DNA of 64,000 nt from Hungateiclostridiaceae bacterium UBA1305 (GTDB lineage Bacteria > Bacillota > Clostridia > Acetivibrionales > DTU013). The stretch is from assembly GCA_002307275.1 (NCBI GenBank), contig DBTX01000068.1:3065-67064 (forward strand). The letters are read 5' to 3'. Both the position numbers and the translations under genes were made by a program. Every line of letters starts with the position of its first letter. Positions within the stretch are counted from its first letter, which is position 1. Positions 19,210-62,269 of this stretch are shown here, in pieces. The notes beneath the pieces are model-generated. The model worked only from the letters and a program-made list of their open reading frames with translations. It was not told the origin of the DNA and searched no databases.

Positions 19210-19605
19210 TTATCTCTTTGAGAACTGTGGCGCCCTTCTTGCTTTTTTGAGACCGTATTTCTTTCTTTCTTTCATTCTCGGGTCTCTTGTAAGGAATCCG
19301 GCTTTTTTAAGCACAGGCCTTAATTCTTCATTCAGCTTGAGCAATGCTCTTGAAATACCGTGTCTGATAGCGCCTGCCTGGCCAGTGAAGCCACCGCCTG
19401 TGACTTTGCACAAGACATCGAATTTTTCTGCTGTATCCGTCAGCACTAATGGCTGCTTTACGATAACCTTGAGTGTTGCCAGTCCAAAATAATCGTCAAG
19501 GGTTCTATCGTTAATAAGAAATTTTCCTTCTCCAGGAACAAGCCTGACTCGTGCTACAGATTTCTTCCTTCTACCTGTTCCATAATACTGAATTTTAAGT
19601 GCCAT
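19210..19605 (-). CDS. rpsI: 30S ribosomal protein S9
   Basis: [14 protein letters not shown]...C-terminal [12 protein letters not shown]. Confidence 0.97.
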
Positions 19606-43997: not shown

Positions 43998-44113
43998 GGG
44001 TTTTTTATTTATAAACAAATTTATTATATTGTTTATTGTTTATATTGTTTTATTATTGTCCGCTTTATTATATTGTAGCCTATTATATTGTAGTGTTATA
44101 ATAATCGTACTCT

Positions 44114-44389
44114 CTATTCTCTAACTCTGCCTTTTGTCTTGTTATTTCCATCATAACCCTGGGCTGATTCATTATAACTTCCTGAAGTAGCGGTAGAATT
44201 ATTTTCTTCCTGGCGCATGAGCTTTTCCAACTCCAATTGGTTCCTGGCTCTCACTTCCTCAGTTCTGACAAGCGCATCCGCACGGATCTGTTCAACCTTA
44301 ATCCTATACTTGGTGATTTGGGATATAACTGTAATAACCAATCCTACTGCAATTGCAAATATAGGTATCAGATTTTCATTAATATACAT
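44114..44389 (-). CDS. Small hypothetical membrane protein (one TM helix plus a charged coiled-coil-like tail)
   Basis: 91-aa ORF with a GAGGTGG RBS. TM segment LIPIFAIAVGLVITVISQI. No family recognised. Confidence 0.5.
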   Translation of the reverse strand: MYINENLIPIFAIAVGLVITVISQITKYRIKVEQIRADALVRTEEVRARNQLELEKLMRQEENNSTATSGSYNESAQGYDGNNKTKGRVRE

Positions 44390-44585
44390 CGTTCCACCTC
44401 GTGCTACTTCATTTGATATAAGATTAACATGTTCTCATCTCGACAGGTTTGTCAAGTTGACCGGAGAGACATGCCGTTCACTATTATATCATCACAAGTA
44501 TAAAACTACCAGTTCAATTGTGATAGTTTAGTTGCGATAAGTCAAATATTAGATACTATTCACAGTCACTTTAAAAGGGTACAAG

Positions 44586-44611
44586 AAAAAGGCTAATGTT
44601 TTAGCCTTTTT
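44586..44611. terminator. Bidirectional-looking intrinsic terminator
   Basis: AAAAAGGCTAA-TGTT-TTAGCCTTTTT. Confidence 0.6.
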
Positions 44612-44640
44612 CTTGAGTGTGTAGAGTTTTATCAAACTTG

Positions 44641-44781
44641 TGGTGGGTGTAGGAGTTCATTTAGGCTTATCGGATTCCCCCTGCAAAGCCGAAGTAGCGC
44701 ATAGAACACATTAATACCATTTCTGTAGCATGTCTCAAGATATGATTTGATGTTCGCATAGAAGAACGCTGTGAATATTAA
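44641..44781 (-). pseudogene. Possible transposase C-terminal remnant (IS66-like)
   Basis: A 46-codon minus-strand frame reads LIFTAFFYANIKSYLETCYRNGINVFYALLRLCRGNPISL. From memory this resembles the IS66-family ...LIETCK.NGINPFEYL... tail. It is bounded by a stop codon upstream. Confidence 0.3.
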
Positions 44782-44829
44782 CTAAGAAGGTTTTAGAAGC
44801 TACGCAACAATTATTTAATGCATACTGCC

Positions 44830-44870
44830 AAAAAAGTGCAATAGACACATTTTCTGATCCATTGCACTTT
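44830..44870 (-). terminator. Intrinsic terminator at the end of the polysaccharide operon
   Basis: On the minus strand, AAAAGTGCAAT-N18-ATTGCACTTTT is followed by a T run. Confidence 0.65.
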
Positions 44871-44921
44871 TACATTTAATAGTTCTTAGCACAGCAGTCT
44901 ATCAATAACAGAGCCTATTGC

Positions 44922-46421
44922 TTACCCAGCTTGCTGTTCCCCTGTCGCAGTTTTGTTATTATCAGGTCCGGATACTGCATTCTTTAATAAGACAAGAACT
45001 ACGGCAGTAAAAGCAGCAAGTATGGTTAATACAATAACCGCCAGTGCAGGTATTTTTACATTCGATATAAAAGAGGATTTGTACTGCGCAGGTACCGGTA
45101 TTTTCACTGCATTATTAAATACTTCCGTTTCAAAATACTCTTCTACCGTCTTATTCGTTATATCAACCCAGTTATTCATCTTTTTAGAAATACTCACTAC
45201 CATAGAATCTACTTCTTTTGAGTATTTTTGCCTGAGGATCTCATCTACAACAGTCCCATTGATTTTTTCAAGTATCTTCGTATAGTACTCAATCTCACGT
45301 GCATCTTCAGAAGCAGTTACACCAGCATCGACCGACCTTCCCAGCAATTGGTCATAATATTCATTCTTCTGGTCAAACTCCGTTGTCCCGGCTGTTTCTC
45401 CATTTGAACCTGGCATCATGATTAGATTTTTATCCTTCTGATACGCTTTTACAGCAGCCTGCGCCATCTGCGCCTCATCCTGTTTCTTACCCATTTCAAG
45501 CTGATATTGCTCAATACGGTATTGATACAGTGACAACAGCCTGTCTTTATCCTTTGTAAGATTATAGCTGTAGATTAAAGAATTCATCCTTGATATATCC
45601 ACATCATTGATGATGTTCAAATACGATACGATATCTCCAAAGGACATTTGAGTCGTTTTGGACCGGAAATCCGGTGAGACTTTCTTTTTATCACTGATAT
45701 AGCTCGTGATAATGTCTATCTGACCCTTCATAATCCTTGCTACCTCCGGGTAGTCATATTCATCGTAATTCAATTCTCCGACTGCTATCGAAAGAACATT
45801 TTTATCTCCATAGGTCTCAATAAAATAATTTTTGTACTCCTTAAGAAGCTCATTAACTACTTTATTGGCTTCATCTCCATCTAAACCAAGCTTCTTTTCA
45901 TTCTTAAAAGTAACCATAAACTGTGTCGGGTGATACTCCAATTCATTCAGTTCTTCAAGCTTTGTGACATCCTTCTCAGCCATCTTGTTTATCGTAAGGA
46001 TTTTATTTATTACATCATCAGGAATTACACCCTGTATATCAATATTCTTTCTAATGTCCTCCGTTGTCAGCTTCCGGCCGTATAAATTCATGGTATCCAT
46101 TACCTTGTCGACAACCACAGGAGCTTTTAATTTATCTATATCAAAGGTCTTCCCATGAGGATCCAAACCCTTGTCAATACCATCAAAGTTAAACGAAATC
46201 AAGGCTTGCACCGAGCCGGATGATTGCTGAATAAATAGCATATAAACTGACACTGCAAGAATAGAAAGGATAAACGTAACACAAGTAAACATTACAATAA
46301 AACGTTTACAACTTAATAAAATATTGAAGATATTCTTAAGCGATATTCTCTCTCCATTATCTTCCTCTTGCTTGATTACCAAATTGATCGTATCTTTTTT
46401 CTCAAGTTCCAATTTCTCCAT
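44922..46421 (-). CDS. Wzz-like polysaccharide chain-length determinant (polysaccharide co-polymerase topology)
   Basis: N-terminal and C-terminal TM helices flank a ~400-aa coiled, charged extracytoplasmic region. No kinase domain. Last gene of the glycan operon. Confidence 0.6.
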   Translation of the reverse strand: MEKLELEKKDTINLVIKQEEDNGERISLKNIFNILLSCKRFIVMFTCVTFILSILAVSVYMLFIQQSSGSVQALISFNFDGIDKGLDPHGKTFDIDKLKAPVVVDKVMDTMNLYGRKLTTEDIRKNIDIQGVIPDDVINKILTINKMAEKDVTKLEELNELEYHPTQFMVTFKNEKKLGLDGDEANKVVNELLKEYKNYFIETYGDKNVLSIAVGELNYDEYDYPEVARIMKGQIDIITSYISDKKKVSPDFRSKTTQMSFGDIVSYLNIINDVDISRMNSLIYSYNLTKDKDRLLSLYQYRIEQYQLEMGKKQDEAQMAQAAVKAYQKDKNLIMMPGSNGETAGTTEFDQKNEYYDQLLGRSVDAGVTASEDAREIEYYTKILEKINGTVVDEILRQKYSKEVDSMVVSISKKMNNWVDITNKTVEEYFETEVFNNAVKIPVPAQYKSSFISNVKIPALAVIVLTILAAFTAVVLVLLKNAVSGPDNNKTATGEQQAG

Positions 46422-46607
46422 TATAAGAATCCTCCCTTTATTAAGCTTTGTAAAATCATAGTATAATAATACACTTTAACCTTTTGGATCTTTTCATTTT
46501 CTTGTTAAATGCTCTGATCACATTGCTTATAAATTATCCTTATTACGACTATTTATATTTTTCTACAGATTAGGATTTTCATCTATTTAATATATCACTA
46601 TTCTAAC

Positions 46608-46892
46608 TTATCTTTGCCGTTTTGTCTTCTCTATAGTATTTTCTATAAACCGCTCCTGTTTCACCTTGATACGCTTCATAATCCCCTGAATGGAAGAAAA
46701 CCTGAAATTGTCCGAATTCATCTTCATGGCAAGGCAATAAATGTCAACTATCTGCTTATTGCGATTCGCTACGTAGGGAGTACTGTTTGAGAAATTGTCA
46801 CCAAGGACAAACTCGTAGGCAGAATTAAGTAATTCCACCGTGATATTTGAGCCAATATAGCCTGTGTAACCAGTTAACAAAACCGAATTCAT
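46608..46892 (-). pseudogene. Chimeric gene ghost: N-terminus of an NAD-dependent epimerase (GalE-like) fused to a C-terminal piece of UDP-glucose 6-dehydrogenase
   Basis: VLLTGYTGYIGSNITVELLNSAYEFVLGDNFSNS is a Rossmann GxxGxxG epimerase start. IYCLAMKMNSDNFRFSSIQGIMKRIKVK matches the Ugd motif ...MKSGSDNFR.SSIQGIMKRIKAKG. Confidence 0.6.
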
Positions 46893-47130
46893 GTTATCTC
46901 TTTAACCCTTTGAGATTTCTGTAAATAAGTATAATTCTTGTTTTCAAAATATCGAGGCAAACATTGCAGTCTGTTATTATGAAAATTCGCAAGCAAATAA
47001 TCGAAACACAAATAACAGTTAGTATCGAATATAAAATCCAGGCACCGTAGCCATCCAATGTCGACATAAAATTGCGTATTAAATCAATATCGGATGTTAT
47101 CATACAATCAGAATTATTGCGTTTTAAATG

Positions 47131-47646
47131 TCATCTCTCAACTTCGGTAATACCATAGTGCATAAGAACTCTGCTCCAGAGCTCATACTGATTCAAAAAA
47201 TGCTCCATGATATCCCTAACGGCACCGTCACCACCTTTTTTCGATGATACAAAGCTAGATATTAAACGAATTTCTTCCGCAGCATTGGAAGGGCAACCCC
47301 TTATTCCACACATTTTCATGGCTACGTAATCGTTTAGGTCATCGCCAATAAAGAGAACTTCGCACAAGGGAATATCTTTATTGTTGCAGATTTCCTTTAG
47401 CGCAAAAACCTTATCCACAGTATTACCAAAAACTTCACACCCAAGTTCGGCACCTCGTCTGGAAACCGCTTCAGATCTGCGACCGGTAAGGAATATTACA
47501 GGCAAGCCTATTACCTGCATAGCCTTGATTGCCAGACCGTCCTTGATATCGAAAGACTTTAATTCCGTTTCACCGGAGCCATATGTAATTTTTCCATCAG
47601 TCAATGTCCCGTCGACATCGAGTACAATCATACTGAGTTTAACCAT
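47131..47646 (-). CDS. HAD-IIIA phosphatase of the KdsC family (ulosonate-phosphate phosphatase type)
   Basis: LDVDGTLTDGKI motif I, LTGR motif, and GDDLNDYVAM motif IV. The length (171 aa) is typical of KdsC and Kdn-9-P/Neu5Ac-9-P phosphatases. Confidence 0.8.
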   Translation of the reverse strand: MVKLSMIVLDVDGTLTDGKITYGSGETELKSFDIKDGLAIKAMQVIGLPVIFLTGRRSEAVSRRGAELGCEVFGNTVDKVFALKEICNNKDIPLCEVLFIGDDLNDYVAMKMCGIRGCPSNAAEEIRLISSFVSSKKGGDGAVRDIMEHFLNQYELWSRVLMHYGITEVER

Positions 47647-47684
47647 AATTCTAACCCTCTGTTTTATAGACCAGTCGCCACCAT

Positions 47685-49265
47685 CTACTGATACAACGAT
47701 TTAGTCAAAAAGCTCACAGTAACTTTTTCAGCTACTCTGGCAATCAAGTCCTTATAGAATTCATTTCTCTGCTCTGCTTGTTCCTCGGTTACCGGTCGCC
47801 GTAAAGTAGTATTATAATAGTTCTCATTAATATTAATAGAGAATCCATCAAAACCAGCAAGGATAATCTCTCTTGCACCAAGTTCTTCAAGTAGCTTTAA
47901 AGCAATAACACTCGATGAATCATAGGTTTTTTCATCAACAATTATCCACTTCTGGTAGTCAACTACATAAACCAAATCGGTACAGGTCTGTGTCAGCCGC
48001 GATGGCACAATAATGGCTTTTCCTTGTTCTTTTGCTTCGGCAAATATTTCTGCACGTGTGGTTAAAACATAATCCGTATTAAATTCAAAGTTGTTCAAAC
48101 TGATAGAGAATATATCTACTTCCGACAAGAGCGCGTTAATTTTTCTCGCGGCATCCTTTATGCTCTTGCCAGGTGCCACCAAAAGAACCTTTTTACCCTC
48201 AACGCATTCTTTAAGCTTCTTTATAACCTCGGCGTCATCAAAAGTCTTGCTGGCATTGTATTTCAAATATAGGTTCTCCGCGTATTGTCTGTCGAAAGAA
48301 TTTTTCTTTTCTTCGTCAATCATACCTAGCAGTTCGGCTACCTGATCAATCGGTAGCATATGTTTATTGTAGAAATGCCCCGCGTAGCTTGGCGTACAAT
48401 GATTGACTGAAGACAAATAGTATTCAGCAGCATAACCCCAATACAATTCTTTATGAATCGTGTTTATTACCTGATCAATTAACTCAAGAAGCGGGGTGAT
48501 TTTGTAATGCTTCCCGTAATAAAGGTTTAAATGCTCCAACAGTAATTCCGTGTTCAAATTACCCGCGCCCTTGCCCATGCCCATGACGGAAGCATCAAGT
48601 ATTAAATTCCTGATGGTCGGAAAGTTGAGTAACTCCATAGCATTAGAATAGGAAAGCTGCAAATTATTATGAGAATGGAATCCTAGCGAGATACCAGGGT
48701 TCAAATTGTTGTCTACCAGATGCATGAGACGGGTAACGTCCGTACCACGCATTTCACCAAAACTGTCAACAATATAAAAGCCTGCTGCATCAGATAGTGA
48801 TTCATTAACAGCCTTTATAAGCTCAAGCAACTCCATATCGGAATACCGCATCGTAAGCATCGGCTGAACATAGAACTGGTACCCCTTGTCAATTACCTTC
48901 CGTCCGAGGGTTATAACATCCTTCCAATTCTTCTTGTGGAAGGCAAGCCGGATACCGTCAATACCATTTTCCTGCCTGTCCTGAAACTTGCCGACATCAA
49001 ATGTACCATAATCCATCATCGCTACATAAGTTTTGCCGAGCTGCTTATGCTTTAAGAAATTTGTCGATATTACCTGCTCATTGGAGAATTGCGTACGCCC
49101 GGAATCAGAGCCGCTTTTCTCATTAATGTATCCGAGTTCGATAAAGTCAACGCCGGATCGTTCCAACGATTGTAAGATTTTATCCATATAGTCCTGACCG
49201 AAATTAAAGTCGTTGACGCATCCACCATCACGAAGAGTTACGTCCAATACTTTTATGGAATTCAT
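47685..49265 (-). CDS. Fusion protein: N-terminal HMGL-like (DRE-TIM metallolyase/aldolase) domain plus a C-terminal DUF115/MptE-like domain
   Basis: N-terminus VLDVTLRDGG...HSHNNLQL (metal ligands) as in DmpG/HMGL-like enzymes. The C-terminal part has KKVLLVAPGKSI...DYVLTT...EIILAGFDGFS, resembling the DUF115 pattern GNGPSL...D...G.D. Confidence 0.65.
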   Translation of the reverse strand: MNSIKVLDVTLRDGGCVNDFNFGQDYMDKILQSLERSGVDFIELGYINEKSGSDSGRTQFSNEQVISTNFLKHKQLGKTYVAMMDYGTFDVGKFQDRQENGIDGIRLAFHKKNWKDVITLGRKVIDKGYQFYVQPMLTMRYSDMELLELIKAVNESLSDAAGFYIVDSFGEMRGTDVTRLMHLVDNNLNPGISLGFHSHNNLQLSYSNAMELLNFPTIRNLILDASVMGMGKGAGNLNTELLLEHLNLYYGKHYKITPLLELIDQVINTIHKELYWGYAAEYYLSSVNHCTPSYAGHFYNKHMLPIDQVAELLGMIDEEKKNSFDRQYAENLYLKYNASKTFDDAEVIKKLKECVEGKKVLLVAPGKSIKDAARKINALLSEVDIFSISLNNFEFNTDYVLTTRAEIFAEAKEQGKAIIVPSRLTQTCTDLVYVVDYQKWIIVDEKTYDSSSVIALKLLEELGAREIILAGFDGFSININENYYNTTLRRPVTEEQAEQRNEFYKDLIARVAEKVTVSFLTKSLYQ

Positions 49266-49303
49266 GAATGATTGCCTCCCTTGAAATTTGTTCCTAACTT
49301 TTT

Positions 49304-49948
49304 TCAGATCTCAAAATTCAGAAGAGCCTCCGCCAAACGGAAATCTTCGGGATTGTTAATATCGACAGCTTCTTTGAAAGTGACCTCCTTTACGAATGGG
49401 TTTAGCCCGATACGACGGTGGTACTTGCTATATGATTCTTTTGTAAATACATAAACTCCGGAAGTTTCGCGATAAATAGGTTTTAGGTCCTGACTGCGCG
49501 GCACATTGGTAGCATCAAAGTTGAGCGGTTCCCCATCCTTCCATAGATAGTCTTGAATCTTTGTAGCGCAGAATGCAGAGTCATATTCGCCCGTTTGAAC
49601 TGCATAAATGCACTGTTTCATTGTCTCTACTGTAATGAAGGGCGCTGTAGCATGCGCATAGACATAAATATCAGAATCAATTTCTTTCATAAAACAGTCG
49701 AATATCTGCGTGAAATTCGATGTGGGCAAATCAAGATATTCGGGCCGCTTGATAAACCTCACACCTGCTGATAAAGATTCACATACGGCTTCATTACTGC
49801 AATAAACATTTACGCTATCCAGCATTTCGAGCAATAGGAGGTTGTCCAGTTCATATTGCAAAAGCGGCTTCTTACCTAATAGTTTTGTATTTTTGCCCGG
49901 TAAGCGTTCATTGTTCAGTTTTATAGGCATTATTGCAACGATTCTCAT
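49304..49948 (-). CDS. Acylneuraminate cytidylyltransferase family protein (NeuA/KdsB/SpsF-like CMP-sugar synthetase)
   Basis: IMPIKLNNERLPGKN N-terminal nucleotide-binding motif, PRSQDL...YRETSG, and C-terminal VDINNPEDFRLAE. Confidence 0.8.
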   Translation of the reverse strand: MRIVAIMPIKLNNERLPGKNTKLLGKKPLLQYELDNLLLLEMLDSVNVYCSNEAVCESLSAGVRFIKRPEYLDLPTSNFTQIFDCFMKEIDSDIYVYAHATAPFITVETMKQCIYAVQTGEYDSAFCATKIQDYLWKDGEPLNFDATNVPRSQDLKPIYRETSGVYVFTKESYSKYHRRIGLNPFVKEVTFKEAVDINNPEDFRLAEALLNFEI

Positions 49949-49985
49949 AATAAGTACTCCTTTTGAATTATACTTCCGAGTTTTT

Positions 49986-51446
49986 CTACTTGAAGATAAA
50001 GCCCAACATAAATTTCAACTTGCCAAACGCAAAAAGCGATAGTATAAATAATACCCCAGAGATAAGAAGTTTTATAGAGATACTGAGGTATTTATTCCAC
50101 TCTGGCAAAAAACTAACACTCAAAACAGAAACAGTGAAGTACACAGCAAACAATAGAAAATCCGTAGCTAGTCGTCGGGCAAAGTCAGAGAATTTAACAC
50201 CAAAGCATTTTTTAATCAACCAGTAAAAAGTAACATAAGTATTCGATGTGTACGCAATAGCAATAGTGACCGATAGAGTATAAATACTTCCGGCAATTAG
50301 TCCGATTACGGTCAATAAAACAGTAATCACTGTATTAATAATTCCAGTTTGTAGTAATAACTTTGTATCTCCCAAACTCTGAAATACTGCAACTGTTGTG
50401 GCATAGATCATTTGCATACAAATAGATAGGCTTAATATCTTAAAAGCAAGAATTGAGTTCTCCCATTGCTCGCCAAAGGCAATAAGAATCAATTCATCGG
50501 ATGAAAGATAACAAAACGTGGTAACAAAAACACTAACCAATAATGTGAATCTTACTAATCTTACATATTTTTCAAAAATATACTTCTTGTCGTTCTGGAA
50601 GTCTGAAAGTATAGGATGCAATACGGACGCAATTATTACAGAGAAATTGTTAAGCGGAAACATGGTTAGTTTATATGCTTTGTCATAATAACCAAGCGCG
50701 TTTGCTCCAAAAACCTTGCCTGTCAAAAGATTATCCGTGTTCCGCGCGAAATAATTAATTATTTTAAAGACAAATAAACTAGATGAATATCCATAAATCT
50801 TTCTTATTGCTCCTTTATCAACCTTTACCTTAAATCTCGGTTTCGTATTCAGATAATTCCAAATGCAATTAATAAAAGCACTCACTATCGACAGCAAAAC
50901 AAGAGAATAATACGAAAGTCCACGATAAGCAGCTATTATTGCCACCAGACTTCCGATTAAAGTTGAAACAAGAAGCCGAACACCTATTAAAAGGAATTTT
51001 TTATCTCTTCTTAAAATGGCATCTGGTACAACAGTCCAAACGTTAAACAAAATAGAAATCGAAAGTGCAAAACAAATAGGTATATATATTGAATTACCAT
51101 AGAAAAAAGATATAGGAAAAGCAAGCATGACAAAAATTACGCATATTACAAACCCCATATAAATAGAAACCGAAAAAATGGAGTCTACATCATCCTTTGT
51201 TAAATCCTTTACTTGTATTACTGCTGCGCCTATGCCCAAATCAGATATTATCGTAAAAAATGTAGTGAAAACATTCACAACAGCAACGATACCATATTCG
51301 TCTGGTGTTAGCAATCGTGCTAATATCATGTTTAGTATAAATTGCAAAACAACCGTAGCGTATTTGAATACTGTTGTTGTAATTACCGCTCTTTTCAACG
51401 ATGTAGGCTGTTGCTTTTTTTCCGGATTCAATACGAGCTTTCTCAT
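49986..51446 (-). CDS. wzx: Wzx-type polysaccharide flippase (MOP superfamily)
   Basis: 486 aa with ~12-14 TM helices. Typical N-terminus (...TTVFKYATVVLQFILNMILARLLTPDEYG). Confidence 0.85.
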   Translation of the reverse strand: MRKLVLNPEKKQQPTSLKRAVITTTVFKYATVVLQFILNMILARLLTPDEYGIVAVVNVFTTFFTIISDLGIGAAVIQVKDLTKDDVDSIFSVSIYMGFVICVIFVMLAFPISFFYGNSIYIPICFALSISILFNVWTVVPDAILRRDKKFLLIGVRLLVSTLIGSLVAIIAAYRGLSYYSLVLLSIVSAFINCIWNYLNTKPRFKVKVDKGAIRKIYGYSSSLFVFKIINYFARNTDNLLTGKVFGANALGYYDKAYKLTMFPLNNFSVIIASVLHPILSDFQNDKKYIFEKYVRLVRFTLLVSVFVTTFCYLSSDELILIAFGEQWENSILAFKILSLSICMQMIYATTVAVFQSLGDTKLLLQTGIINTVITVLLTVIGLIAGSIYTLSVTIAIAYTSNTYVTFYWLIKKCFGVKFSDFARRLATDFLLFAVYFTVSVLSVSFLPEWNKYLSISIKLLISGVLFILSLFAFGKLKFMLGFIFK

Positions 51447-51616
51447 GTAACTTCATCCTGAAATTTTTTAGAGTTACACATATCATCACATAGGTTAATA
51501 GCGGTCATCTCATCAAGTGCATATTTCAACAGCGGTTTTCCTCCTAGATGTCAATTGTTTTTTTGGAATAAATGTTCATTATTTAATTTGATGGGCATTA
51601 TCGAGGGGATTTTCAT
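51443..51616 (-). pseudogene. Ghost of a second cytidylyltransferase gene (N-terminal ~57 codons, in-frame stop)
   Basis: Minus strand reads MKIPSIMPIKLNNEHLFQKNN*HLGGKPLLKYALDEMTAIN..., parallel to MRIVAIMPIKLNNERLPGKNTKLLGKKPLLQYELDNL of the 49304-49948 gene. It ends in an ATGA overlap with wzx. Confidence 0.7.
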
Positions 51617-51619
51617 TGA

Positions 51620-52183
51620 TCAGACCTCATTCAAAATATACTCATCAGTAGCATGATCGTTTGATAGTATCCTACCTGGATTGCCCAAAACAATCGAATT
51701 ATCAGGCACGTCAAAATTCACCATCCCCCCCCCCGCAATTAGTACATTATTCCCAATTTTAATGTTTCCAACCACTATTGAGTTAGGACCTATCCAAACA
51801 TTTGATCCTATTTGAGGCGCGCCTTTTCTAAACCCTCTATTTTCTTGGCCAATAGTCACGCCTTTTGTTATATTAACATTATTGCCGATTATTGTATTCT
51901 TGTTAATTGTGATAGCTCCATAATGTGTGATTTTAAAACCTTTTCCAATCTCTACTTGCCAAGGTATCTCGATTCCCGAATAAACAGAATATCTGTATAG
52001 TTTATACCTAAAAAACATAAATAAGGGTTTATACCTTCTAGCCCAATTTGTAGCACGATGTATAACCATGAATTTGAATCCAGGACATAAAAAAAAGTGT
52101 TTTAGAAAATACCGTATGGATTTGTTCCTTTCGTATCGAAACAGGTCTGCTTTTATCAAAGAAACGAGTAGTTTAAAATTCAT
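51620..52183 (-). CDS. Hexapeptide-repeat O-acetyltransferase (serine acetyltransferase/WcaB-like)
   Basis: Left-handed beta-helix repeats IGNNVNITKGVTIG, IGSNVWIGPNSIVVGNIKIGNNVLIAGGGMV. N-terminal helical region as in the CysE/WcaB family. Confidence 0.85.
   Translation of the reverse strand: MNFKLLVSLIKADLFRYERNKSIRYFLKHFFLCPGFKFMVIHRATNWARRYKPLFMFFRYKLYRYSVYSGIEIPWQVEIGKGFKITHYGAITINKNTIIGNNVNITKGVTIGQENRGFRKGAPQIGSNVWIGPNSIVVGNIKIGNNVLIAGGGMVNFDVPDNSIVLGNPGRILSNDHATDEYILNEV
51725..51734 (-). repeat. Homopolymeric G10 tract (C10 on plus) inside the O-acetyltransferase coding sequence
   Basis: Minus strand reads CTA ATT GCG GGG GGG GGG ATG GTG, encoding LIAGGGMV. The reading frame is currently intact. 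Confidence 0.95.
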
Positions 52184-52201
52184 TGCTGTTACCCCACTTA
52201 T

Positions 52202-53032
52202 TTATTCGTATAAGTCATATGGAAAAGTTGCGAACAGGTTCTGCTGAAGCGTTTCCAAATTTGGAACTTGGATAGGAACTCTGCTAAACGCTTCCTCCTC
52301 AGTACCACAGAATTCTATATTCAATCTTCTTGTGCTCATGAAATAATCATAGTATTTAAATAGCAACTGTTTTTTTGGTAACAGTGGGATTACTGGTATG
52401 CCATATGCTTCTGCAATAATTATTCCGTGTAAGGAAGACGAAATGATTATCTCGCACTTGTTAATTTCATCAATGACGCATAGGGGGTTTTCGTTTCTTG
52501 GATTGATTACTCTCGCTCCCATCTTGACTTTCCAATCATTTTCCGCGTAATGATTAATGATCCCGAATTTATTTTCCTTGCTAACATTAGGTTTGTAAAT
52601 TTTTGGCATTAATATAGCGGGATCTCCATACAATTCGGGTACTTCATGTCCGGCTGATTTCAAAAATTCCTTTGTTAATGGACCGCGAATCATTCTTATA
52701 TCAAGCTTTCTGTATATTTTCATCAATGACGTAAGATGCCCAAGTATTCCGCTCCCCCAAACCGTTGCGTTCTGGTATCCTAAATCCAGAATGCTTCCAC
52801 ATGCATAAAGATGTTTTGTCGTTATCGTTTTTTCTATTCCAGTTATTCCTTTTTGATACAGCAAATGCTTCACTATTATTGGTGATAATAAGTCTCCAAA
52901 ATTTTTGTTCCTATATGCAGTTTTTGAGGCATAATGCAGATTAACTCTATTCTGGATGGTATGCCTGCTTGGATCGTCAAGAATAATTCTGTTTCTTAGT
53001 AGGTAACTTGTCGCAATTCTTGATATATTCAT
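52202..53032 (-). CDS. Polysaccharide pyruvyl transferase (ExoV/GumL/CsaB family)
   Basis: NFGDLLSP, GSIL, VWGSG, RGPLT, GDPAILMP and SSSLHGIIIAEAYGIPV match the PS_pyruv_trans motif series. Confidence 0.8.
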   Translation of the reverse strand: MNISRIATSYLLRNRIILDDPSRHTIQNRVNLHYASKTAYRNKNFGDLLSPIIVKHLLYQKGITGIEKTITTKHLYACGSILDLGYQNATVWGSGILGHLTSLMKIYRKLDIRMIRGPLTKEFLKSAGHEVPELYGDPAILMPKIYKPNVSKENKFGIINHYAENDWKVKMGARVINPRNENPLCVIDEINKCEIIISSSLHGIIIAEAYGIPVIPLLPKKQLLFKYYDYFMSTRRLNIEFCGTEEEAFSRVPIQVPNLETLQQNLFATFPYDLYE

Positions 53033-54322
53033 TTACTTTACCAATCTCTTTCTAATTATTGATAAAGACATTCCCACACATATTGATAAAATAATTCCTT
53101 CATTCATTATGTAAATTGGGAAACTAACCATACCATGAATGAGGAATGTAATACACACCATCAGTGAAAAAAGTGACATCGGCAGCAGTTCCCTGTAGTA
53201 TTTGCAAACTTTAACTGCCTTGAAACATATTATTAAACAACAAATGAAAAAAGAAAAATATAACACTGATCCAACCAGCCCTGTTTCGGCCAATAATTGC
53301 AAATACATGTTATGCGCTTCGTTAACACTACCTTGCCCATATAAACTATTTAGGTTGGAGAAACTACCTAATCCGTTTCCAAATATTGGCTTTTGTTTGA
53401 ATAGTTGGATAGCATATTGCCAAAGATCTAACCGACCATTTAAAGTCGAATAATCATTTAGTGAAGTAAACCTCTGAATTGTAATATTTGCCTGTGGGAC
53501 AAAGATCAATATAGCAATGGTAATAATTGAGAAGATCAAAAAAAATCGAAGAATACTCTTTCTGATTTTTCTATCACTTAGAAAAAACAACATAATAAAA
53601 ACAACACAAACAATAATTATCACTTGACTTCGCTGACCAGTGCATAGCATTGCAGCAAAACATATCGTGCAATACACCATTTGTTTAAGCTTAATTTTTC
53701 CTTGTGATAGTATACCTGATATAAAATAACACATCGCAATATTCATTGAGGCTGCAGCTAAGCCTCTTGCACCATTCAATCCAGAATACTGGCCAGCACT
53801 GTATTCGTGCAGCAACCTACCGACATTTGTAAAGTAAAAATCAAAAATAGTAATGAAATTGTTTTTCAGAATGCTTGATACAATGATAAATGCTGCGTAA
53901 AATAGAGCAACTGGTTTAATTATGTTGTATGTACTTCTGTACAAACTTAATCGAACAGGCAATAACGTTATTATTCCGTACAATGAAAACTGGAGAATAG
54001 TATCAAGGATATTTGCATTGCTTACGTTAATAGCTGTCATTTGTATCGCTATAAAAGCAATATAAATGATTAAAGAACCATAATATATACGCGGGTTACT
54101 TTTCAATTCCATATTAGCAACGCAGCACAAAATGTATATAATTATGTAAACAAATGCACAATTGGAGTATATTGTAAATCCCTTAGACCCCCCTAGGCAG
54201 AAAAATACCAAGAGTAAAATCGCTAAATTAACAATAGTACTCTTAATACTGAGTTTCTCATTAAAATGCTGTCTCCAAAATTGACTAAGATAAGTCTCAT
54301 TTATTATTACATTAATCTCCAT
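53033..54322 (-). CDS. wzy: Wzy-type O-antigen/polysaccharide polymerase (O-antigen ligase-like family)
   Basis: ~10-12 TM helices, with a large loop carrying NEAHNMYLQLLAETGLVG (Wzy_C-type motif). Confidence 0.8.
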   Translation of the reverse strand: MEINVIINETYLSQFWRQHFNEKLSIKSTIVNLAILLLVFFCLGGSKGFTIYSNCAFVYIIIYILCCVANMELKSNPRIYYGSLIIYIAFIAIQMTAINVSNANILDTILQFSLYGIITLLPVRLSLYRSTYNIIKPVALFYAAFIIVSSILKNNFITIFDFYFTNVGRLLHEYSAGQYSGLNGARGLAAASMNIAMCYFISGILSQGKIKLKQMVYCTICFAAMLCTGQRSQVIIIVCVVFIMLFFLSDRKIRKSILRFFLIFSIITIAILIFVPQANITIQRFTSLNDYSTLNGRLDLWQYAIQLFKQKPIFGNGLGSFSNLNSLYGQGSVNEAHNMYLQLLAETGLVGSVLYFSFFICCLIICFKAVKVCKYYRELLPMSLFSLMVCITFLIHGMVSFPIYIMNEGIILSICVGMSLSIIRKRLVK

Positions 54323-54468
54323 ATTTGTTCCTTTGTAATAGATCTATGTCCACCCTTAGAATCGTATCCAGCAAAGCACCACACTCTACATTATATACAT
54401 TCACACCTACTTCATCGCAAACACACCTGTTTACGCTCATCGATAAAGGGGCTCTTATTGCCGATGCT

Positions 54469-55326
54469 TTATTCATTATTCTCTACAACCTCATCTAAAC
54501 ACTGTCTCTTAAAGGCTTCCAATTTTCCACCTCTAGTGCAATTAATAATTCGTATACTATGGGTTTCGGCAAACCTCTCAGCTGTTCTATATGCAGTATC
54601 TGCAATATTCTTGTTTTGAATGTTGTAAGTTGTTGTTTTTACATCCCCAAAGTAATCTCTTATTTCTCGATTAATAATTAATTTGCCTTTCTCATCTATG
54701 CTCTGCGAATAGTTGTGATCAATTCCCAATAGATAAATCTCTGTGAATCCCATGTATACAGCTATTTGTATTGCGTTATATACTACCGTTTCTCCAGCTT
54801 CGGTTGCAGTACATATATCTGAACTGAATCTGATAAACGACCTAGGTTTGTATTTCTTAAGGTAAAATGGTTGACGATTATATACATAGAAAATTTTGTT
54901 TGATTTTTTTATACCACAATGTTGGCCGAATAATGAAACAAAACAAGTTGAGTCGGTAGATATGCTCTCAACTTTGTTGCTTATATCCGATAAAGTCTTT
55001 TCTTCTACACACATCCAAAAATTTGGGCGCCAATCCGTTTTATCGTAAAGCTGAAAGATTCGATTACAGCCAAATGTGACCTCGTTCTTTATCATTTCCA
55101 AATCTTCAGTCCGAAGGCTGGGACCGTTGCCGATTATAAAACAACGTTTGCCCTTATAAGCGTCTTTAAAACTTGAGAGTTCTTTGGCGCTTTCACTATG
55201 AGCAAATTTCAGATCTGACATCAATATTTTAAGAGCAAAGTACGGATATACTATGGTTCTGATGATCAAGTTATTATTCAAAAGATTTCTGGTTAATATT
55301 TTGATATCTGAAAAGTTATATCTCAA
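54469..55326 (-). CDS. DUF115 (MptE/Maf-like) protein, putative ulosonic-acid transferase
   Basis: GKRCFIIGNGPSL...GCNRIF...DWRPNFWMCVE...IYLLGIDHNY follows the DUF115/MAF_flag10 pattern. Confidence 0.65.
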   Translation of the reverse strand: MRYNFSDIKILTRNLLNNNLIIRTIVYPYFALKILMSDLKFAHSESAKELSSFKDAYKGKRCFIIGNGPSLRTEDLEMIKNEVTFGCNRIFQLYDKTDWRPNFWMCVEEKTLSDISNKVESISTDSTCFVSLFGQHCGIKKSNKIFYVYNRQPFYLKKYKPRSFIRFSSDICTATEAGETVVYNAIQIAVYMGFTEIYLLGIDHNYSQSIDEKGKLIINREIRDYFGDVKTTTYNIQNKNIADTAYRTAERFAETHSIRIINCTRGGKLEAFKRQCLDEVVENNE

Positions 55327-56323
55327 TTCTACACCTCTTTAACCTGCTCTTCTGAAGAAGCGGCCTTACTATTCCATGTAAAATGCCAATCAATCTAATA
55401 AAAACGAAGCGTAGTATTATTTTACTCGCTAACTGGATTAATTTTCTGCTCTTGGTCATGCTGGTAGGACGTAGCGGTGTATTACCCCAAGCGGTCTTAC
55501 CTCTGTATTCGAGGTAGGTTTGTGTCATCTTATGATCGCAGTTTTGCATCCAGGGACGTCCATTTACCATAAAAAATGTATCGAAATGAACAATACAAGG
55601 GTTATGCAAAGAGGAATTCACCTCGGCTTCGGTATAAAGAAACTGCGGCCGCCTGGCTGAAGAAATTTCACGGTAACTACACATGTAGAATAAAGAAATT
55701 ATGTTAAATCGCAATGGAAAATAGAAAATATCATCTTGCAAAATTTTACAAATGATATCGTTGTCCGGGAATTCGAGCAAACCGTTATATTCCTTTATCG
55801 CTTTAACCAGAATCTGTTGCCAGCCGTTTTCCCGGTATTTATTCAAATCAATAACCAACATTCCACTATTAATATAGTAACTTGTATCCTTGATGCCCAA
55901 GTTTCGATTATACCTAATATTTCTACAGTCCCTAACGGCTCCCAGAGTTTTGCCTTGAAAATTTTGTTTCCATAGCGACATCATTGAATCAAGAATTAAT
56001 GTATCGCAGTCGATATATATCACTCGCTCAATTTCTGTAGGTAACAACGTTCCCAGCAATATCCGGGAGAACATACTCTCGGAATATCTTTTTATATCAA
56101 CTGTTTCTCCTATGATATTAGAAATGTCAGGCATGTTAATAAAATAAATATCACATTGATAATTCGAAGTTGAAGATTCTATTCTTGTTTTGTTATCGTC
56201 GGAAATATTCTGAGAAATAATGTACACATTAACTAATTGACCCTTATTGTTCTCAAGTAGCGATACAAGCGATACTGTTAATACTTCTGCAAAATTATTG
56301 TCTGATGCGTATACGATGTTCAT
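55316..56323 (-). CDS. Glycosyltransferase family 8
   Basis: MNIVYASDNNFA...VIYIDCDTLILD (DxD)...YINSGMLVIDL, typical of GT8 retaining transferases. Confidence 0.85.
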   Translation of the reverse strand: MNIVYASDNNFAEVLTVSLVSLLENNKGQLVNVYIISQNISDDNKTRIESSTSNYQCDIYFINMPDISNIIGETVDIKRYSESMFSRILLGTLLPTEIERVIYIDCDTLILDSMMSLWKQNFQGKTLGAVRDCRNIRYNRNLGIKDTSYYINSGMLVIDLNKYRENGWQQILVKAIKEYNGLLEFPDNDIICKILQDDIFYFPLRFNIISLFYMCSYREISSARRPQFLYTEAEVNSSLHNPCIVHFDTFFMVNGRPWMQNCDHKMTQTYLEYRGKTAWGNTPLRPTSMTKSRKLIQLASKIILRFVFIRLIGILHGIVRPLLQKSRLKRCRIEI

Positions 56324-56780
56324 TTATTGGCACTCCCCGATTTATACTTCTTACAGAACAACTCAATGTCCGTAAATTCCGAGACTCTATCTTTTATTAT
56401 ATCTTCAGTCCAATTCCACCATTGTATTTCCTGCAATAACTCGATGATATCTTCATTAAATCTTATTCTTGCTAGCTCCTTAACGTATACACAGGCTTTA
56501 ATTGTGTCTTTTCGCCCGCGCAAAAGAAGTATCGCTTGTTTATTCCTTTTCAATTAATCCATGTTCTTATGCCCTGGAATCTATTTACCGAACTATTGAT
56601 TTGCATTCAATTAAACGTGCATATCTTTTTATATCTTCAATTTGTAAATAAAAATTCATATCCGATATAGAATTTCCGTACATTAATGTAATATCAAATA
56701 TCTCTTTTTCAGGCCAGGAATTAAATCCATAATATTCCATCTATCACCGTTTCCCATAGTTTCAGCGATCAACAATAGTT
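56320..56780 (-). pseudogene. Decayed hexapeptide xenobiotic-type (Vat/CatB-like) acetyltransferase
   Basis: The 77-aa ORF (56320-56553) ends in RFNEDIIELLQEIQWWNWTEDII, matching the conserved Vat/CatB C-terminus (RF....I..LL.I.WWNW). Upstream frames give broken pieces (GNGDRWN; ARLIECKSIV) separated by stops and frameshifts. Confidence 0.5.
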
Positions 56781-56828
56781 CTACTTTTATAATACTCTCC
56801 CCCAAATCACAATTTGCATATTAGTATA

Positions 56829-58250
56829 CTAATAAGCATTCCCGTTCACAAACCCCTTAAACACCGTCATAAACATAATCTTCACATCCATAAAAATGCT
56901 CCAATTACGTATGTAGTAGTTATCACACTTGATCCTTTCCTCTATAGATGAGTCACCACGCCAGCCGTTCACTTGCGCCCAACCTGTGATGCCGCTTTTT
57001 ATGTAATGCCTCATCATGTACTGGGGTACTTCTTCTTTAAACTTTCCGACCCAGTAAGGCCTTTCAGGTCTCGGGCCGACTATACTCATATTTCCGAACA
57101 ATACATTGAATAGCTGGGGTAATTCATCAAGACTTGTCTTTCTGATGAACGATCCAAATACAGTCTTTCTGGGATCATTTGCTGTAGTCCACTGCACCTT
57201 CTCTTCATTCTTGTCCTGGATTCTCATGGATCTGAATTTATACATCATGAAAGGCTTATTACTGGCTCCAACTCTCTCTTGTTTATAAAGTATCGGACCT
57301 TTTGATGTTAACTTTATTCCTATTGCCACCAACAACATGATTGGCATGAATATTAGAATAAATATTACTGAAACGAGTATATCGAATGATCTTTTTATCA
57401 ATATGTTGTGTATATGATCCAGTGGAACTTCCCGCACGTGTATCACCGGCATACCTTCTATTTCTTCGACTGTCACACAAATGTCTTCAGAATAAGCCGG
57501 TAAAATATTTGTTCGTATACCTTCTTTATCACAGATATCAATGATATTTTTTATCAAACCATATTTTTCAATTGATAAAGCGATTACTACTTCATGGACG
57601 TCATTAGTATCAATGATCGTTTCAAGATCCTTTATCTGTCCAAGTATCGTTAATGCGTTTTTATCCGCTGTATTGCTTACATCATCCAGAAATCCAATAA
57701 CATTGCTTCCCCATAGTTTGTATTTTTTAATTCGTTCAAAAAATAGCTTTCCAATATATCCGGATCCAATAATTAAAATATTTTTTGAATCCAGATATCT
57801 TTTATTTGATTTTGAAAGCAAAAGCATTAATAATTTTATAAGTATTCTAACTGCAATAAGTGATACTGTTGCAACAGAAATAAATATAATAAGAAAAAGC
57901 CTGCTTAAATTTGTGTTATGTAAGAAATAAAGTATGCCGCTCAAAATTGCAAAGCCCATAGAGTTCGCAAAAACGGGTTTTAACAGTGTGGAAAATATAG
58001 ATTCTTTTTTCTTAATGAATGTGTATGATCTCGTTATGTAAAAACTTATTGGCCAAATTGCTGCTATTACAGCCAGAATCCATAAATATTCATTAAAATT
58101 AGTCATAAGCTTATATTTCAGGCTATAAAAAGTATTACGCAAGGCATAGGCTGCAAAATAAGAATCAATTACCATTGTCAAATCCACAATCAGTACAATT
58201 TTTTGAACAAACTTAATTTTACTGGTCAACATATGTTTAGCTCCTAACAA
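56829..58250 (-). CDS. Undecaprenyl-phosphate sugar phosphotransferase (WbaP/EpsL-type initiating enzyme)
   Basis: N-terminal TM bundle, a CoA-binding-like region, and the bacterial sugar transferase domain KRSFDILVS...YKFRSM...DELPQLFNVLFGNMSIVGPRPERP. Confidence 0.92.
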   Translation of the reverse strand: MLGAKHMLTSKIKFVQKIVLIVDLTMVIDSYFAAYALRNTFYSLKYKLMTNFNEYLWILAVIAAIWPISFYITRSYTFIKKKESIFSTLLKPVFANSMGFAILSGILYFLHNTNLSRLFLIIFISVATVSLIAVRILIKLLMLLLSKSNKRYLDSKNILIIGSGYIGKLFFERIKKYKLWGSNVIGFLDDVSNTADKNALTILGQIKDLETIIDTNDVHEVVIALSIEKYGLIKNIIDICDKEGIRTNILPAYSEDICVTVEEIEGMPVIHVREVPLDHIHNILIKRSFDILVSVIFILIFMPIMLLVAIGIKLTSKGPILYKQERVGASNKPFMMYKFRSMRIQDKNEEKVQWTTANDPRKTVFGSFIRKTSLDELPQLFNVLFGNMSIVGPRPERPYWVGKFKEEVPQYMMRHYIKSGITGWAQVNGWRGDSSIEERIKCDNYYIRNWSIFMDVKIMFMTVFKGFVNGNAY

Positions 58251-58277
58251 TAGCGAACAATACGTATTTGAAGATAA

Positions 58278-58856
58278 TTAGTCATCCATATATTTCTGAT
58301 ACAAGCTTTGTATCGTCTCAATTTCTTCCGGTGTGAACCGCTGGTACATGATTTCCTTGGCACGCTTTTTCTCTGCAGCATCTACTCCGCCCGGCAGCAT
58401 ACTTTTCAATTCGTTGATGTCTGCGGTGTTCAACCGTTTTATTAGTAATGCGGCTGAACTGATTTTGTCCACAGCCGTAACTTTTTCTTTTACTTCATTC
58501 ATTTGTTCTACTGTATATTGAATCTTTTGGTCATTGGAATTTGAGGTTTCAGGTTTTGATATGTTTGATTCCGGGGTTTCAGGTTTCTGATCAGAATTAC
58601 CACTCGGATTGGTTATTTCATCAGTTATATTGCCTGAAGGCTGTTGAGAAAGCTTATTTCCTGAAGCGGACCCGGTTTGTTCATTTGCATTGGGAGACAT
58701 GTTCTGGGAAGTTGATGGCTCTTCTACTAAAAGGTCATTGATTTCACTATCGATCACAGTATTTAACATTTTATCTCCGATATAATACAATACTGTTACA
58801 GCTGTTCCTGACAGAAGCAATAAAATAACGACAGCAATGACAATTACCTTCTTCAT
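58278..58856 (-). CDS. Hypothetical membrane-anchored protein with an S/N/P-rich linker
   Basis: MKKVIVIAVVILLLLSG TM anchor, a low-complexity linker and a ~90-aa helical C-terminal domain. ATG at 58856 has a GGAAGGGA RBS; the ORF-track start at 58988 is unlikely. Confidence 0.55.
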   Translation of the reverse strand: MKKVIVIAVVILLLLSGTAVTVLYYIGDKMLNTVIDSEINDLLVEEPSTSQNMSPNANEQTGSASGNKLSQQPSGNITDEITNPSGNSDQKPETPESNISKPETSNSNDQKIQYTVEQMNEVKEKVTAVDKISSAALLIKRLNTADINELKSMLPGGVDAAEKKRAKEIMYQRFTPEEIETIQSLYQKYMDD

Positions 58857-59031
58857 ACAATTCCCTTCCTGTACCAAATTATTTGTGTAGGATATAATCA
58901 TAGCTTCGCCATGGCATGCATTTGATGAATAAATGCAAACCTCTATACGGGAGCTATGACCTCCTGATCTTCTACAGGGCCGAAACACCTGCTGCAGACT
59001 TCAGATTTTATCAACTATAGTAAAAATAGTA

Positions 59032-59544
59032 TTATGCCGGTTCAAGCAGTGAAACTCCTAACTCGACTACTCTTTCTTCCCCTAAAAAGCTGAGTACCAC
59101 CTTTGCTCTGCCCTTACGGGTGTTAATATCTTTTATAATTCCTTCCATGGAATATAGCGGCCCTTCGATGATACGGATATTGCCATTCTCTATCAGCAAG
59201 GAGGATATCCCTATTTCATCTTCATTACAGACAAGCTTGGAGAGCGTATTCATTTCACCTTCAGTGATACTTGCTAATTCATTTCCGGTTTTTAAATGCC
59301 GTATAATTCCTGGAATACTTTTCATGTCGTAATATGTCTCGGCATCAATATTCCCTTTTAATATGACATACCCGGGGAAAAGGACTCTTGTTCGGTAATA
59401 CCATGAACCATTCTTTCTCTCCCTAAGCTTCCGCTTGGGTACCATTATCCTGAATTGATCTTTGAATCGGTATTGTAGACGTTCCTTTACTTTGTCTTCT
59501 CCACCGGTAAATACGAACAAAGCATGCCATCCTGGATTAGGCAT
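59032..59544 (-). CDS. NusG paralog (LoaP-like processive antiterminator), first gene of the polysaccharide operon
   Basis: NGN domain WHALFVFTGGEDKVKERL...FPGYVILKG and KOW domain IIEGPLYSMEGIIKDINTRKGRAKVVL. 170 aa. Confidence 0.8.
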   Translation of the reverse strand: MPNPGWHALFVFTGGEDKVKERLQYRFKDQFRIMVPKRKLRERKNGSWYYRTRVLFPGYVILKGNIDAETYYDMKSIPGIIRHLKTGNELASITEGEMNTLSKLVCNEDEIGISSLLIENGNIRIIEGPLYSMEGIIKDINTRKGRAKVVLSFLGEERVVELGVSLLEPA

Positions 59545-59564
59545 TATTTTCCATGTCCCCCTCT

Positions 59565-59610
59565 AAAAAACTTGAAATTATCCAAGCATATCTACCTGGA
59601 TAATTTCAAG
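59565..59610 (-). terminator. Intrinsic terminator between the SLH gene and the NusG-paralog gene
   Basis: On the minus strand, CTTGAAATTATCCA-N12-TGGATAATTTCAAG (perfect 14-bp stem) is followed by TTTTTT. It lies 20 nt upstream of the ATG at 59544. Confidence 0.7.
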
Positions 59611-59645
59611 TATGAAGTTGATATCAGTTATTATTTTAATATGTC

Positions 59646-61763: not shown

Positions 61764-61932
61764 TTTCTTACCCCCCTGTTAATATTTTGTTTCCAATTGG
61801 ATACTTCGCCCTTATTAAAATTTTAAATTCTTTGGCATCTCGGTCCAATAACAGTAAACTGTTCATTAAATTACATATTTATCCTTAGAAAATAAAAGTA
61901 TTTTTAGCACTGTTATATTAAACAACATTTCA

Positions 61933-61961
61933 ATTATAAGTATATAAATTTTGGATGTCAA
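61933..61961 (-). promoter_or_regulatory. Perfect-consensus sigma-A promoter of the SLH protein gene
   Basis: Minus strand reads TTGACA (61956-61961)-17 nt-TATAAT (61933-61938). It predicts a ~160-nt leader. Confidence 0.65.
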
Positions 61962-62269
61962 TTACATTTACAGAAATGTCAAATATTTTATATGATTTAC
62001 CAGAATATACGTTATGATTCTGTAGATTATGTCAATTCTTCAGCTCCGCAACAAACTCAACCCTATACCCTCTTTACTAAGCTATATTCTCAAAATACAA
62101 AAATATTTTACTACATTTTTCTGCATAATCATAGCAAATGGACTGTAGAATTGTTAATTGGGGAAGGATGAAACTGCTGATATGGGCTTTTAAATGTCAA
62201 TTATGCCTTCAAAAGTTTGTTTTAAACAAACTTTCACAGGCATAATTATGTAGTACATAAAGAAACCCG

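Follow-up and report, generated by a model that had tools for sequence, protein, structure and literature searches.

A ten-guanine tract in a polysaccharide-locus acetyltransferase gene of an Acetivibrionales-like bacterium as a candidate slipped-strand switch

Introduction

When a run of ten guanines lies in frame within a gene for a glycan-modifying enzyme, is it a genetic switch or an accident of sequence? The question is raised by a 64,000-nucleotide (64 kb) stretch of contig DBTX01000068.1 from Hungateiclostridiaceae bacterium UBA1305, hereafter the window, in which a homopolymer of ten G residues (G10) lies within the gene of a putative polysaccharide O-acetyltransferase. The host is a spore-forming, Acetivibrionales-like bacterium of the Clostridia whose relatives are known mostly from metagenomes. 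The interpretation favoured here, to which we assign a probability of roughly 0.55, is that the tract is a slip-prone repeat in the gene of a non-essential, glycan-decorating enzyme, that it switches the O-acetylation of a glycan ON and OFF, stochastically and heritably, by slipped-strand mispairing, and that it is currently ON. The components of this proposal differ in strength. On general grounds the tract very likely mutates at a raised rate, its status as a selected contingency locus is nearer to an even bet, and the switch itself is a plausible but unproven prediction.

A guanine tract at odds with its protein family

On the plus strand the tract and its borders read ACCAT CCCCCCCCCC GCAAT, with C10 occupying exactly the position given in Table 1. 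The coding (minus) strand reads ATT GCG GGG GGG GGG ATG GTG, corresponding to I149, A150, G151, G152, G153, M154 and V155, and the sole long open reading frame (ORF) that spans the tract in the window's ORF list is the acetyltransferase gene. Re-reading of the window sequence bears out an earlier, preliminary description of this locus with regard to the tract, its strand, its codons and its in-frame (ON) state. The rarity that the same description emphasised is equally evident: no other G/C run in the 64 kb is as long as 7, the closest in length being four runs of 6. The GC content of the gene, on the other hand, had been put at about 30% and measures 35.1%, compared with 42% for the whole window. 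Order-0 composition predicts 0.035 G/C runs of at least 10 per window, a first-order Markov model 0.074 and dinucleotide-preserving shuffles 0.05. When the amino acids are held fixed and synonymous codons are shuffled, a run of this length appears in 1.05% of shuffles of all 53 window ORFs and in 0.1% of shuffles of the 13 polysaccharide-locus ORFs. Prokaryotic coding sequences in general contain fewer poly-G and poly-C tracts than expected (PMC2831843), which supports the view that the G10 tract is unusual. Within the window it is longer and more frequent than composition and codon usage predict, which does not hold genome-wide if the tract is taken alone. The tract is locally unusual, and it is noteworthy through its location and amino-acid context rather than through its mere existence.

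That context is provided by codon choice and by the protein family. GGG accounts for 10% of glycine codons in the core genes and 15% in the low-GC island that carries the gene, and GCG for about 20% of alanine codons; given the peptide AGGG, the probability of the codons GCG GGG GGG GGG is 2-7e-4. The other Gly-Gly-Gly tripeptides in the window, five out of five, are encoded with mixed codons. The site was compared between the window protein and its 119 best homologues (n=120), the latter having the consensus A-P-[G/N]-[S/A]-[Y/F]. Position 151 is a near-invariant proline (112/120 sequences), position 153 holds S, A or T in all sequences other than that of the window, and 117/120 have Y or F at position 154; AGGGM is unique to the window protein in this set. 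One homologue with Gly-Gly at the site, the closest such (P0002, with AGGAF), uses the codons GCA GGT GGA GCA, and in 162 homologous loci, drawn from species-representative genomes and from metagenomes, no G run at the site exceeds G5 and one or two G residues are the usual length. No indel separates the window gene from its homologues in the alignment, and the tract therefore appears to be the product of substitutions, one of which removed the near-invariant proline. A compensated frameshift and a +3 expansion were considered as alternative origins; the alignment shows no indel, at a DNA identity (56% or lower) that is too low to retrace such events. By codon choice and family alignment alike, the tract departs from ordinary coding sequence, and the amino-acid sequence itself is bent towards glycine.

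The enzyme and the predicted consequences of slippage

The preliminary description had assigned the gene to a left-handed beta-helix acetyltransferase in a polysaccharide locus, and on this point Pfam and NCBIfam profiles, the fold model and the operon genes agree. The Hexapep domain (Pfam PF00132) is detected with 42 bits, above its cut-off of 27. The best NCBIfam matches all fall under their equivalog cut-offs (EpsC 102.4 versus 150, cysE 83.8 versus 210.65, WcaB 75.2 versus 194.65), and the protein is therefore a member of a serine-acetyltransferase-like branch without being orthologous to any of the named enzymes. The possibility of a true short-form serine acetyltransferase (SAT; CysE) was considered and rejected on these sub-threshold scores together with the operon context. 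An AlphaFold2 model based on 120 homologues (predicted local distance difference test, pLDDT, 97.5) has helices at residues 3-69 followed by a left-handed beta-helix with short strands at 70-175. The top 50 fold matches in the PDB are all serine acetyltransferases, with template modelling (TM) scores, normalised to the query, of up to 0.77. His87 is invariant in the 120 sequences and aligns with His162 of the Neisseria gonorrhoeae SAT, the catalytic histidine of that enzyme (PMC8786284). In the model the tract residues occupy the turn after strand 147-149, where glycine is structurally tolerated.

The start of the gene deserves a comment, as one public gene call begins at the internal Met39 (149 aa) and another at Met1. 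The 187-residue reading is the full-length one, homologues of 180-200 residues aligning from the first residues; its ATG follows the stop codon of the gene upstream by 18 nt, with GTGGGG in front of it. The nearest homologue anywhere is merely 56% identical, because the gene sits on an acquired island (see below). A protein-guided scan of metagenome contigs found relatives of at most 54% identity over most of the protein, and a partial match covering residues 91-187 with 65% (L122). From its position between the genes for the pyruvyl transferase and Wzy on one side and Wzx on the other, the enzyme is predicted to O-acetylate the polysaccharide or a precursor of it.

What would a change in tract length do to this protein? 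In silico, G10 gives the full 187 residues of the sequenced ON state, and G7 and G13 remain in frame with 186 and 188 residues. Tracts of G8 and G12 truncate the product to 156 and 155 residues, G9 yields 154 residues ending in AGGGW (a stop after 1 codon) and G11 yields 157 residues ending in AGGGDGEF (a stop after 4 codons). The expectation that a slip of +1 or -1 truncates the protein thus stands, with two amendments. The segment lost had been given as about 36 residues, and 34 follow the last glycine. It had also been thought to complete the active site; the tract comes after His87 and the other active-site positions, so that this claim is not borne out, and what is lost is the last coil and the tail. 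These 34 residues nevertheless carry 12 of the 45 invariant or near-invariant columns of the family: N156 and N168 are invariant, and F157, D158, V159, P160, S163, V165, G167, P169, T179 and Y182 are near-invariant. A crystallised, C-terminally truncated SAT (1SSM) still reaches the equivalent of residue 174, and the residues lost here lie within the beta-helix that 1SSM retains. Given the loss of this conserved coil and tail, it is reasonable to infer that the OFF forms would lose function. Polar effects on wzx are unlikely, since the break is near the 3' end.

The proposed switch would operate in the following manner. During replication the nascent or the template strand would misalign within the ten G:C pairs and give rise to G9 or G11 daughters, as is expected from the general behaviour of homopolymers. 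Either length would shift the frame into the early stops described above, and the truncated product, judging from the conservation of the missing part, probably could not fold or trimerise into an active acetyl-coenzyme A (acetyl-CoA)-dependent transferase. As a result, the Wzx/Wzy polysaccharide would lack that O-acetyl group until a second slip restored G10 and with it the acetylation. The population would be expected to consist of cells with and cells without O-acetyl groups on the surface glycan, a mixture whose most plausible role is bet-hedging against phages or other glycan-recognising agents. Immune evasion, which had also been put forward as a driver, is less apt here: for a host among the spore-forming Clostridia, with relatives that are mostly metagenomic, phage pressure is the more natural one.

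Poly-G tracts in homologous genes, and known slippage switches

Tracts of this kind are not confined to the window. In a survey of 161 homologous loci, G/C runs of at least 8 occur three times in 89.7 kb of acetyltransferase genes and once in 630 kb of flanking DNA, an approximately 20-fold enrichment (Fisher p=0.007). A Rikenellaceae metagenome-assembled genome (MAG) carries an in-frame G8 near the 5' end of its gene (L047). In a second homologue (L141) a G9 in the aligned column leaves the gene out of frame as assembled, with a frame that is restored to 203/204 residues by G8 or G11, and a third (L089) has an in-frame G7 a few codons earlier. The three 5' tracts sit just after a DLYRY motif, the proteins share 35-45% identity pairwise, and L141 and L089 are located in polysaccharide loci. 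A further homologue with a G8 (L151) was dropped as evidence on account of stop codons on both sides of its tract and a coverage of 1.8x. Poly-G recurs in this enzyme family, and one copy has been caught OFF, at a 5' site unlike the site in the window.

Surface-polysaccharide O-acetyltransferases under the control of slippage are already well established. NeuO has a hexapeptide-repeat fold and resembles the present case as an acetyl-CoA-dependent capsule O-acetyltransferase encoded on horizontally acquired DNA and subject to intragenic repeat slippage, which is here predicted. Encoded by the CUS-3 prophage, it modifies the polysialic acid capsule of Escherichia coli K1 and is phase-variable through a heptanucleotide repeat; ON and OFF genotypes occur among genomes, and O-acetylation alters the sensitivity to phage and to neutrophils (PMC13001214). 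The NeuO repeat, (AAGACTC)n, is situated in the 5' region, whereas the window tract is a 3'-proximal homopolymer, and in this Gram-negative pathogen switching has been measured, whereas that of the window tract is predicted from sequence alone. The wciZ gene of Streptococcus pneumoniae is likewise an O-acetyltransferase gene, situated in a Firmicute capsule locus; it differs in carrying a dinucleotide repeat and in encoding a membrane acyltransferase, unlike the beta-helix enzyme discussed here. Slipped-strand mispairing reversibly inactivates wciZ, which underlies the 15B/15C switch and changes the antigenicity of the polysaccharide (PMC4432689). For wciZ, isolates have been documented to vary, and this sets it apart from the window tract.

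A parallel in the repeat itself is offered by Campylobacter jejuni, where intragenic G/C homopolymers of similar length lie in surface-glycan modifying genes. That organism has no mismatch repair, and its genomes contain such tracts by the dozen. The tracts measure about 8-11 nt, fall in genes that modify the capsule or the lipooligosaccharide (LOS) and cause stochastic ON/OFF expression (PMC8355987, PMC8437040). The window differs in having a single tract in 64 kb and in belonging to a taxon for which literature searches gave no record of the mechanism. WcaB, EpsC and CysE share the fold, the sequence family, the Hexapep domain and the catalytic histidine with the window protein, which differs from them in scoring under every equivalog cut-off. 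To our knowledge, none of these three carries a homopolymer switch. As the gene of a putative side-group modifier of a surface glycan, in a Wzx/Wzy operon, the acetyltransferase gene falls in the class that is archetypal for contingency loci.

Switch, accident or artefact?

How, then, does a selected switch fare against other explanations of the tract? In its favour, the gene combines a long tract in the reading frame with the property that gain or loss of a unit exchanges the full-length for a truncated product. A number of observations weigh against it, and several of them speak at the same time for an incidental homopolymer. That alternative holds that the tract arose by mutation and drift, possibly in the donor of the island, within a tolerant turn of the beta-helix and with no selected role in switching; it would then be a mere mutational hazard, sooner or later inactivating a dispensable accessory gene. 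The first such observation is statistical. Extrapolated from the codon shuffles, at about 1% per 48 kb of coding sequence, roughly 0.5-1 such tract is expected by chance in a genome of several Mb, and a single tract is by itself not significant on a genome-wide scale. There is no G/C tract in any other gene of the island, and 113 kb from the closest relatives contain no G/C run of at least 7. Literature searches found no case of phase variation by poly-G among the Clostridia. Tracts under selection are mostly placed towards the 5' ends of genes (PMC2831843), a position that is typical of contingency genes without being obligatory; this tract, at nt 450-459 of 564, is about 80% into the gene, which counts against a typical design, and the truncated product could keep some function. 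The turn tolerates glycine, and Pro151 is also missing from P0002 and four other homologues.

The search for length variants points the same way. The gene was found in two other public contigs, a Logan assembly of SRR404117 (L001) and a JGI metagenome, 3300001213 (L002), which are 100% identical to the window, G10 included, over 15,853 bp and 10,662 bp, respectively. Being identical DNA of one strain, and maybe derived from shared or sister read sets, they do not count as independent evidence. The length heterogeneity envisaged in the preliminary description was seen neither in these public copies, all of which are G10 and of the same strain, nor among ten predicted G7-G13 variant products (from both start codons), all of which were absent from an exact look-up in 15 billion proteins. 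A homology search yielded no near-identical truncated protein, and a flank pattern with a variable gap of 5-16 nt had 0 matches in genome contigs and 0 in metagenome contigs. Public assemblies show the consensus length of a tract, not its minority lengths.

Three findings sit uneasily with an incidental origin. Three consensus residues, the near-invariant proline among them, have been changed towards glycine, all by means of the rarest glycine codon; the only such tract in the window lies in a gene of the very class that is known for contingency tracts; and genes of this family are richer in poly-G runs than the DNA that flanks them. An incidental homopolymer is the main rival explanation, at well below even odds.

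Slippage might instead take effect mainly at the level of RNA or protein. RNA polymerase (or the ribosome) would slip on G10, so that even cells of the ON genotype would contain full-length protein alongside truncated protein, and the role of the tract would be to adjust how much acetylation takes place without any heritable switch. This is improbable. Documented transcriptional slippage occurs mostly on A/T runs, which counts against the idea, and such an effect would in any case be compatible with DNA-level switching, which must also occur on G10. What speaks for it is that slipped transcripts would meet a stop at once in either of the other frames and so be non-functional, and that long homopolymers are substrates of transcriptional slippage, as in the poly-A tracts of Buchnera (mentioned in PMC2831843).

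Least credible of all is a miscalled length, with a true tract of G9 or G11 (and hence a pseudogene) or a shorter, interrupted run in place of an in-frame G10: homopolymers of at least 10 are error-prone on some platforms and the three assemblies may share reads, but the window, Logan and JGI sequences, products of different pipelines, all have exactly G10 and no other difference over 10-16 kb, a reproducibility that argues against assembly error, and G10 keeps the highly conserved C-terminal 34 residues in frame, as a random miscall would do one third of the time.

Implications of a possible slippage switch in environmental anaerobes

Slipped-strand switching of O-acetylation, the preferred reading of the G10 tract, would be of interest for its breadth (taxon, island context and recurrence within the family) rather than for its principle, the mechanism itself being textbook. 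If it is correct, a mechanism known mainly from host-adapted pathogens extends to environmental anaerobes, presumably driven by phages, and a clean case of simple-sequence-repeat phase variation is found outside its usual hosts, in a lineage of the Clostridia whose other known programmed variation consists mainly of DNA inversion. O-acetylation of surface glycans would then look like a bet-hedging trait in environmental anaerobes too, most likely against phages. A wider proposal, which we advance tentatively and regard as rather doubtful, combines poly-G switching in spore-forming, Acetivibrionales-like Clostridia on an acquired island with the CysE/WcaB-like family as a recurrent and independent target of poly-G tracts. 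The bacteria concerned are unrelated, with a 3' site here and 5' sites in the Rikenellaceae MAG and the two metagenomic homologues, one of them OFF. In practical terms, the tract marks a site at which ON or OFF may be read differently by assemblies, gene callers and metagenome bins, for reasons that are biological and not technical.

Genomic context and minor features

The acetyltransferase gene belongs to an operon on a single strand, in the order NusG paralogue, initiating sugar transferase, GT8 glycosyltransferase, MptE-like/DUF115 protein, Wzy, pyruvyl transferase, acetyltransferase, Wzx, a cytidylyltransferase of the type that acts on cytidine monophosphate (CMP)-sugars, an HMGL-like aldolase-domain protein and a HAD phosphatase (Table 1). 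The NusG paralogue at its head recalls the UpxY/LoaP-type antitermination factors of long polysaccharide operons. The cytidylyltransferase, HMGL-like, HAD and MptE-like/DUF115 genes look like a pathway for a CMP-activated sugar of the ulosonic-acid type together with its transferase; the sugar may be an unusual one, all scores being far under the named equivalogs.

Table 1. Coordinates of the tract, its gene and associated features in the window and, in the last three rows, of poly-G tracts in homologous loci
Feature	Position	Strand	Remarks
G10 homopolymer (C10 on + strand)	51725..51734	(-)	In frame; third base of Ala150 (GCG) and all of Gly151-Gly153
Acetyltransferase gene	51620..52183	(-)	CysE/WcaB/EpsC-like hexapeptide (left-handed beta-helix) acetyltransferase; intact, 187 aa
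3' segment lost after +1 or -1 slip	51620..51724	(-)	34 codons and stop; last beta-helix coil and tail
T8 run in acetyltransferase gene	52089-52096		On coding strand; codons 30-32, H-F-F-L
T8 run in wzy gene	53538-53545		On coding strand
Low-GC island	44009..62269	(.)	18.3 kb; SLH-protein gene and whole polysaccharide operon; between NUDIX gene and rpsJ
NusG-paralogue gene	59032..59544	(-)	170 aa; head of polysaccharide operon
Initiating sugar-phosphate transferase	56829..58250	(-)	Bac_transf and CoA_binding_3 domains
MptE-like/DUF115 protein	54469-55326		
Wzy-type polymerase	53033..54322	(-)	Wzy_C domain
Polysaccharide pyruvyl transferase	52202..53032	(-)	Directly upstream of acetyltransferase gene
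Wzx-type flippase	49986..51446	(-)	Directly downstream of acetyltransferase gene
PseF/KdsB-like cytidylyltransferase, HMGL-like protein, HAD phosphatase	47131-49948		HMGL-like (pyruvate aldolase-type) protein of 526 aa
Tract in L047 (Rikenellaceae MAG)	2051-2058		In-frame G8 at about codon 22
Tract in L141	2982-2990		G9, aligned column; out of frame as assembled (47-aa product)
Tract in L089	3040-3046		In-frame G7, a few codons earlier

The operon and the gene of an SLH-domain protein just upstream of it make up the low-GC island, with a GC content of 34-39% against 43-47% in the flanks. In the closest relatives the NUDIX gene lies directly beside rpsJ, with about 0.5 kb containing a small ORF of 93-100 aa in place of the island. 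The relatives compared at this point, L165 (97% identical in L3) and L166-L170 (89% in L3), are syntenic with the window at 82-94% DNA identity, and by UvrC the nearest relatives are Acetivibrionales/Ruminiclostridium-like MAGs with 89-92% identity. As the island is missing from the closest relatives, the whole polysaccharide operon was acquired horizontally. A chimeric assembly was considered as the source of the low-GC segment and rejected, as both flanks rejoin the genomes of the relatives at adjacent genes (NUDIX and rpsJ), which is the signature of an insertion. L001 and L002 lie wholly inside the island, so that its junctions with the core genome are supported by the window's own contig only. 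The rest of the window is core genome and includes uvrC, lonB, clpX, tig, secY and a ribosomal protein operon. Two further island ORFs remained without assignment: that at 44922-46421 (499 aa) has no Pfam and no NCBIfam match, and that at 58278-58988 (236 aa) has no match in a scan against Pfam only.

The T8 runs in the acetyltransferase and wzy genes were considered as extra switches and discarded, as the two A/T runs of at least 8 observed in the locus compare with 3.65 expected and are at chance level. Other repeats in the window are of a different nature. The SLH-protein gene contains an imperfect trinucleotide repeat at 60415-60470 (TTG on the plus strand, about 18 copies) that encodes a low-complexity Thr10-Asn9 linker; it is in frame and could vary in length. 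Outside the polysaccharide locus there are two short tandem repeats, (TTTC)4 at 19258-19273 and (AT)6 at 24107-24118, the latter in the gap between divergent ORFs at about 24.1-24.45 kb.

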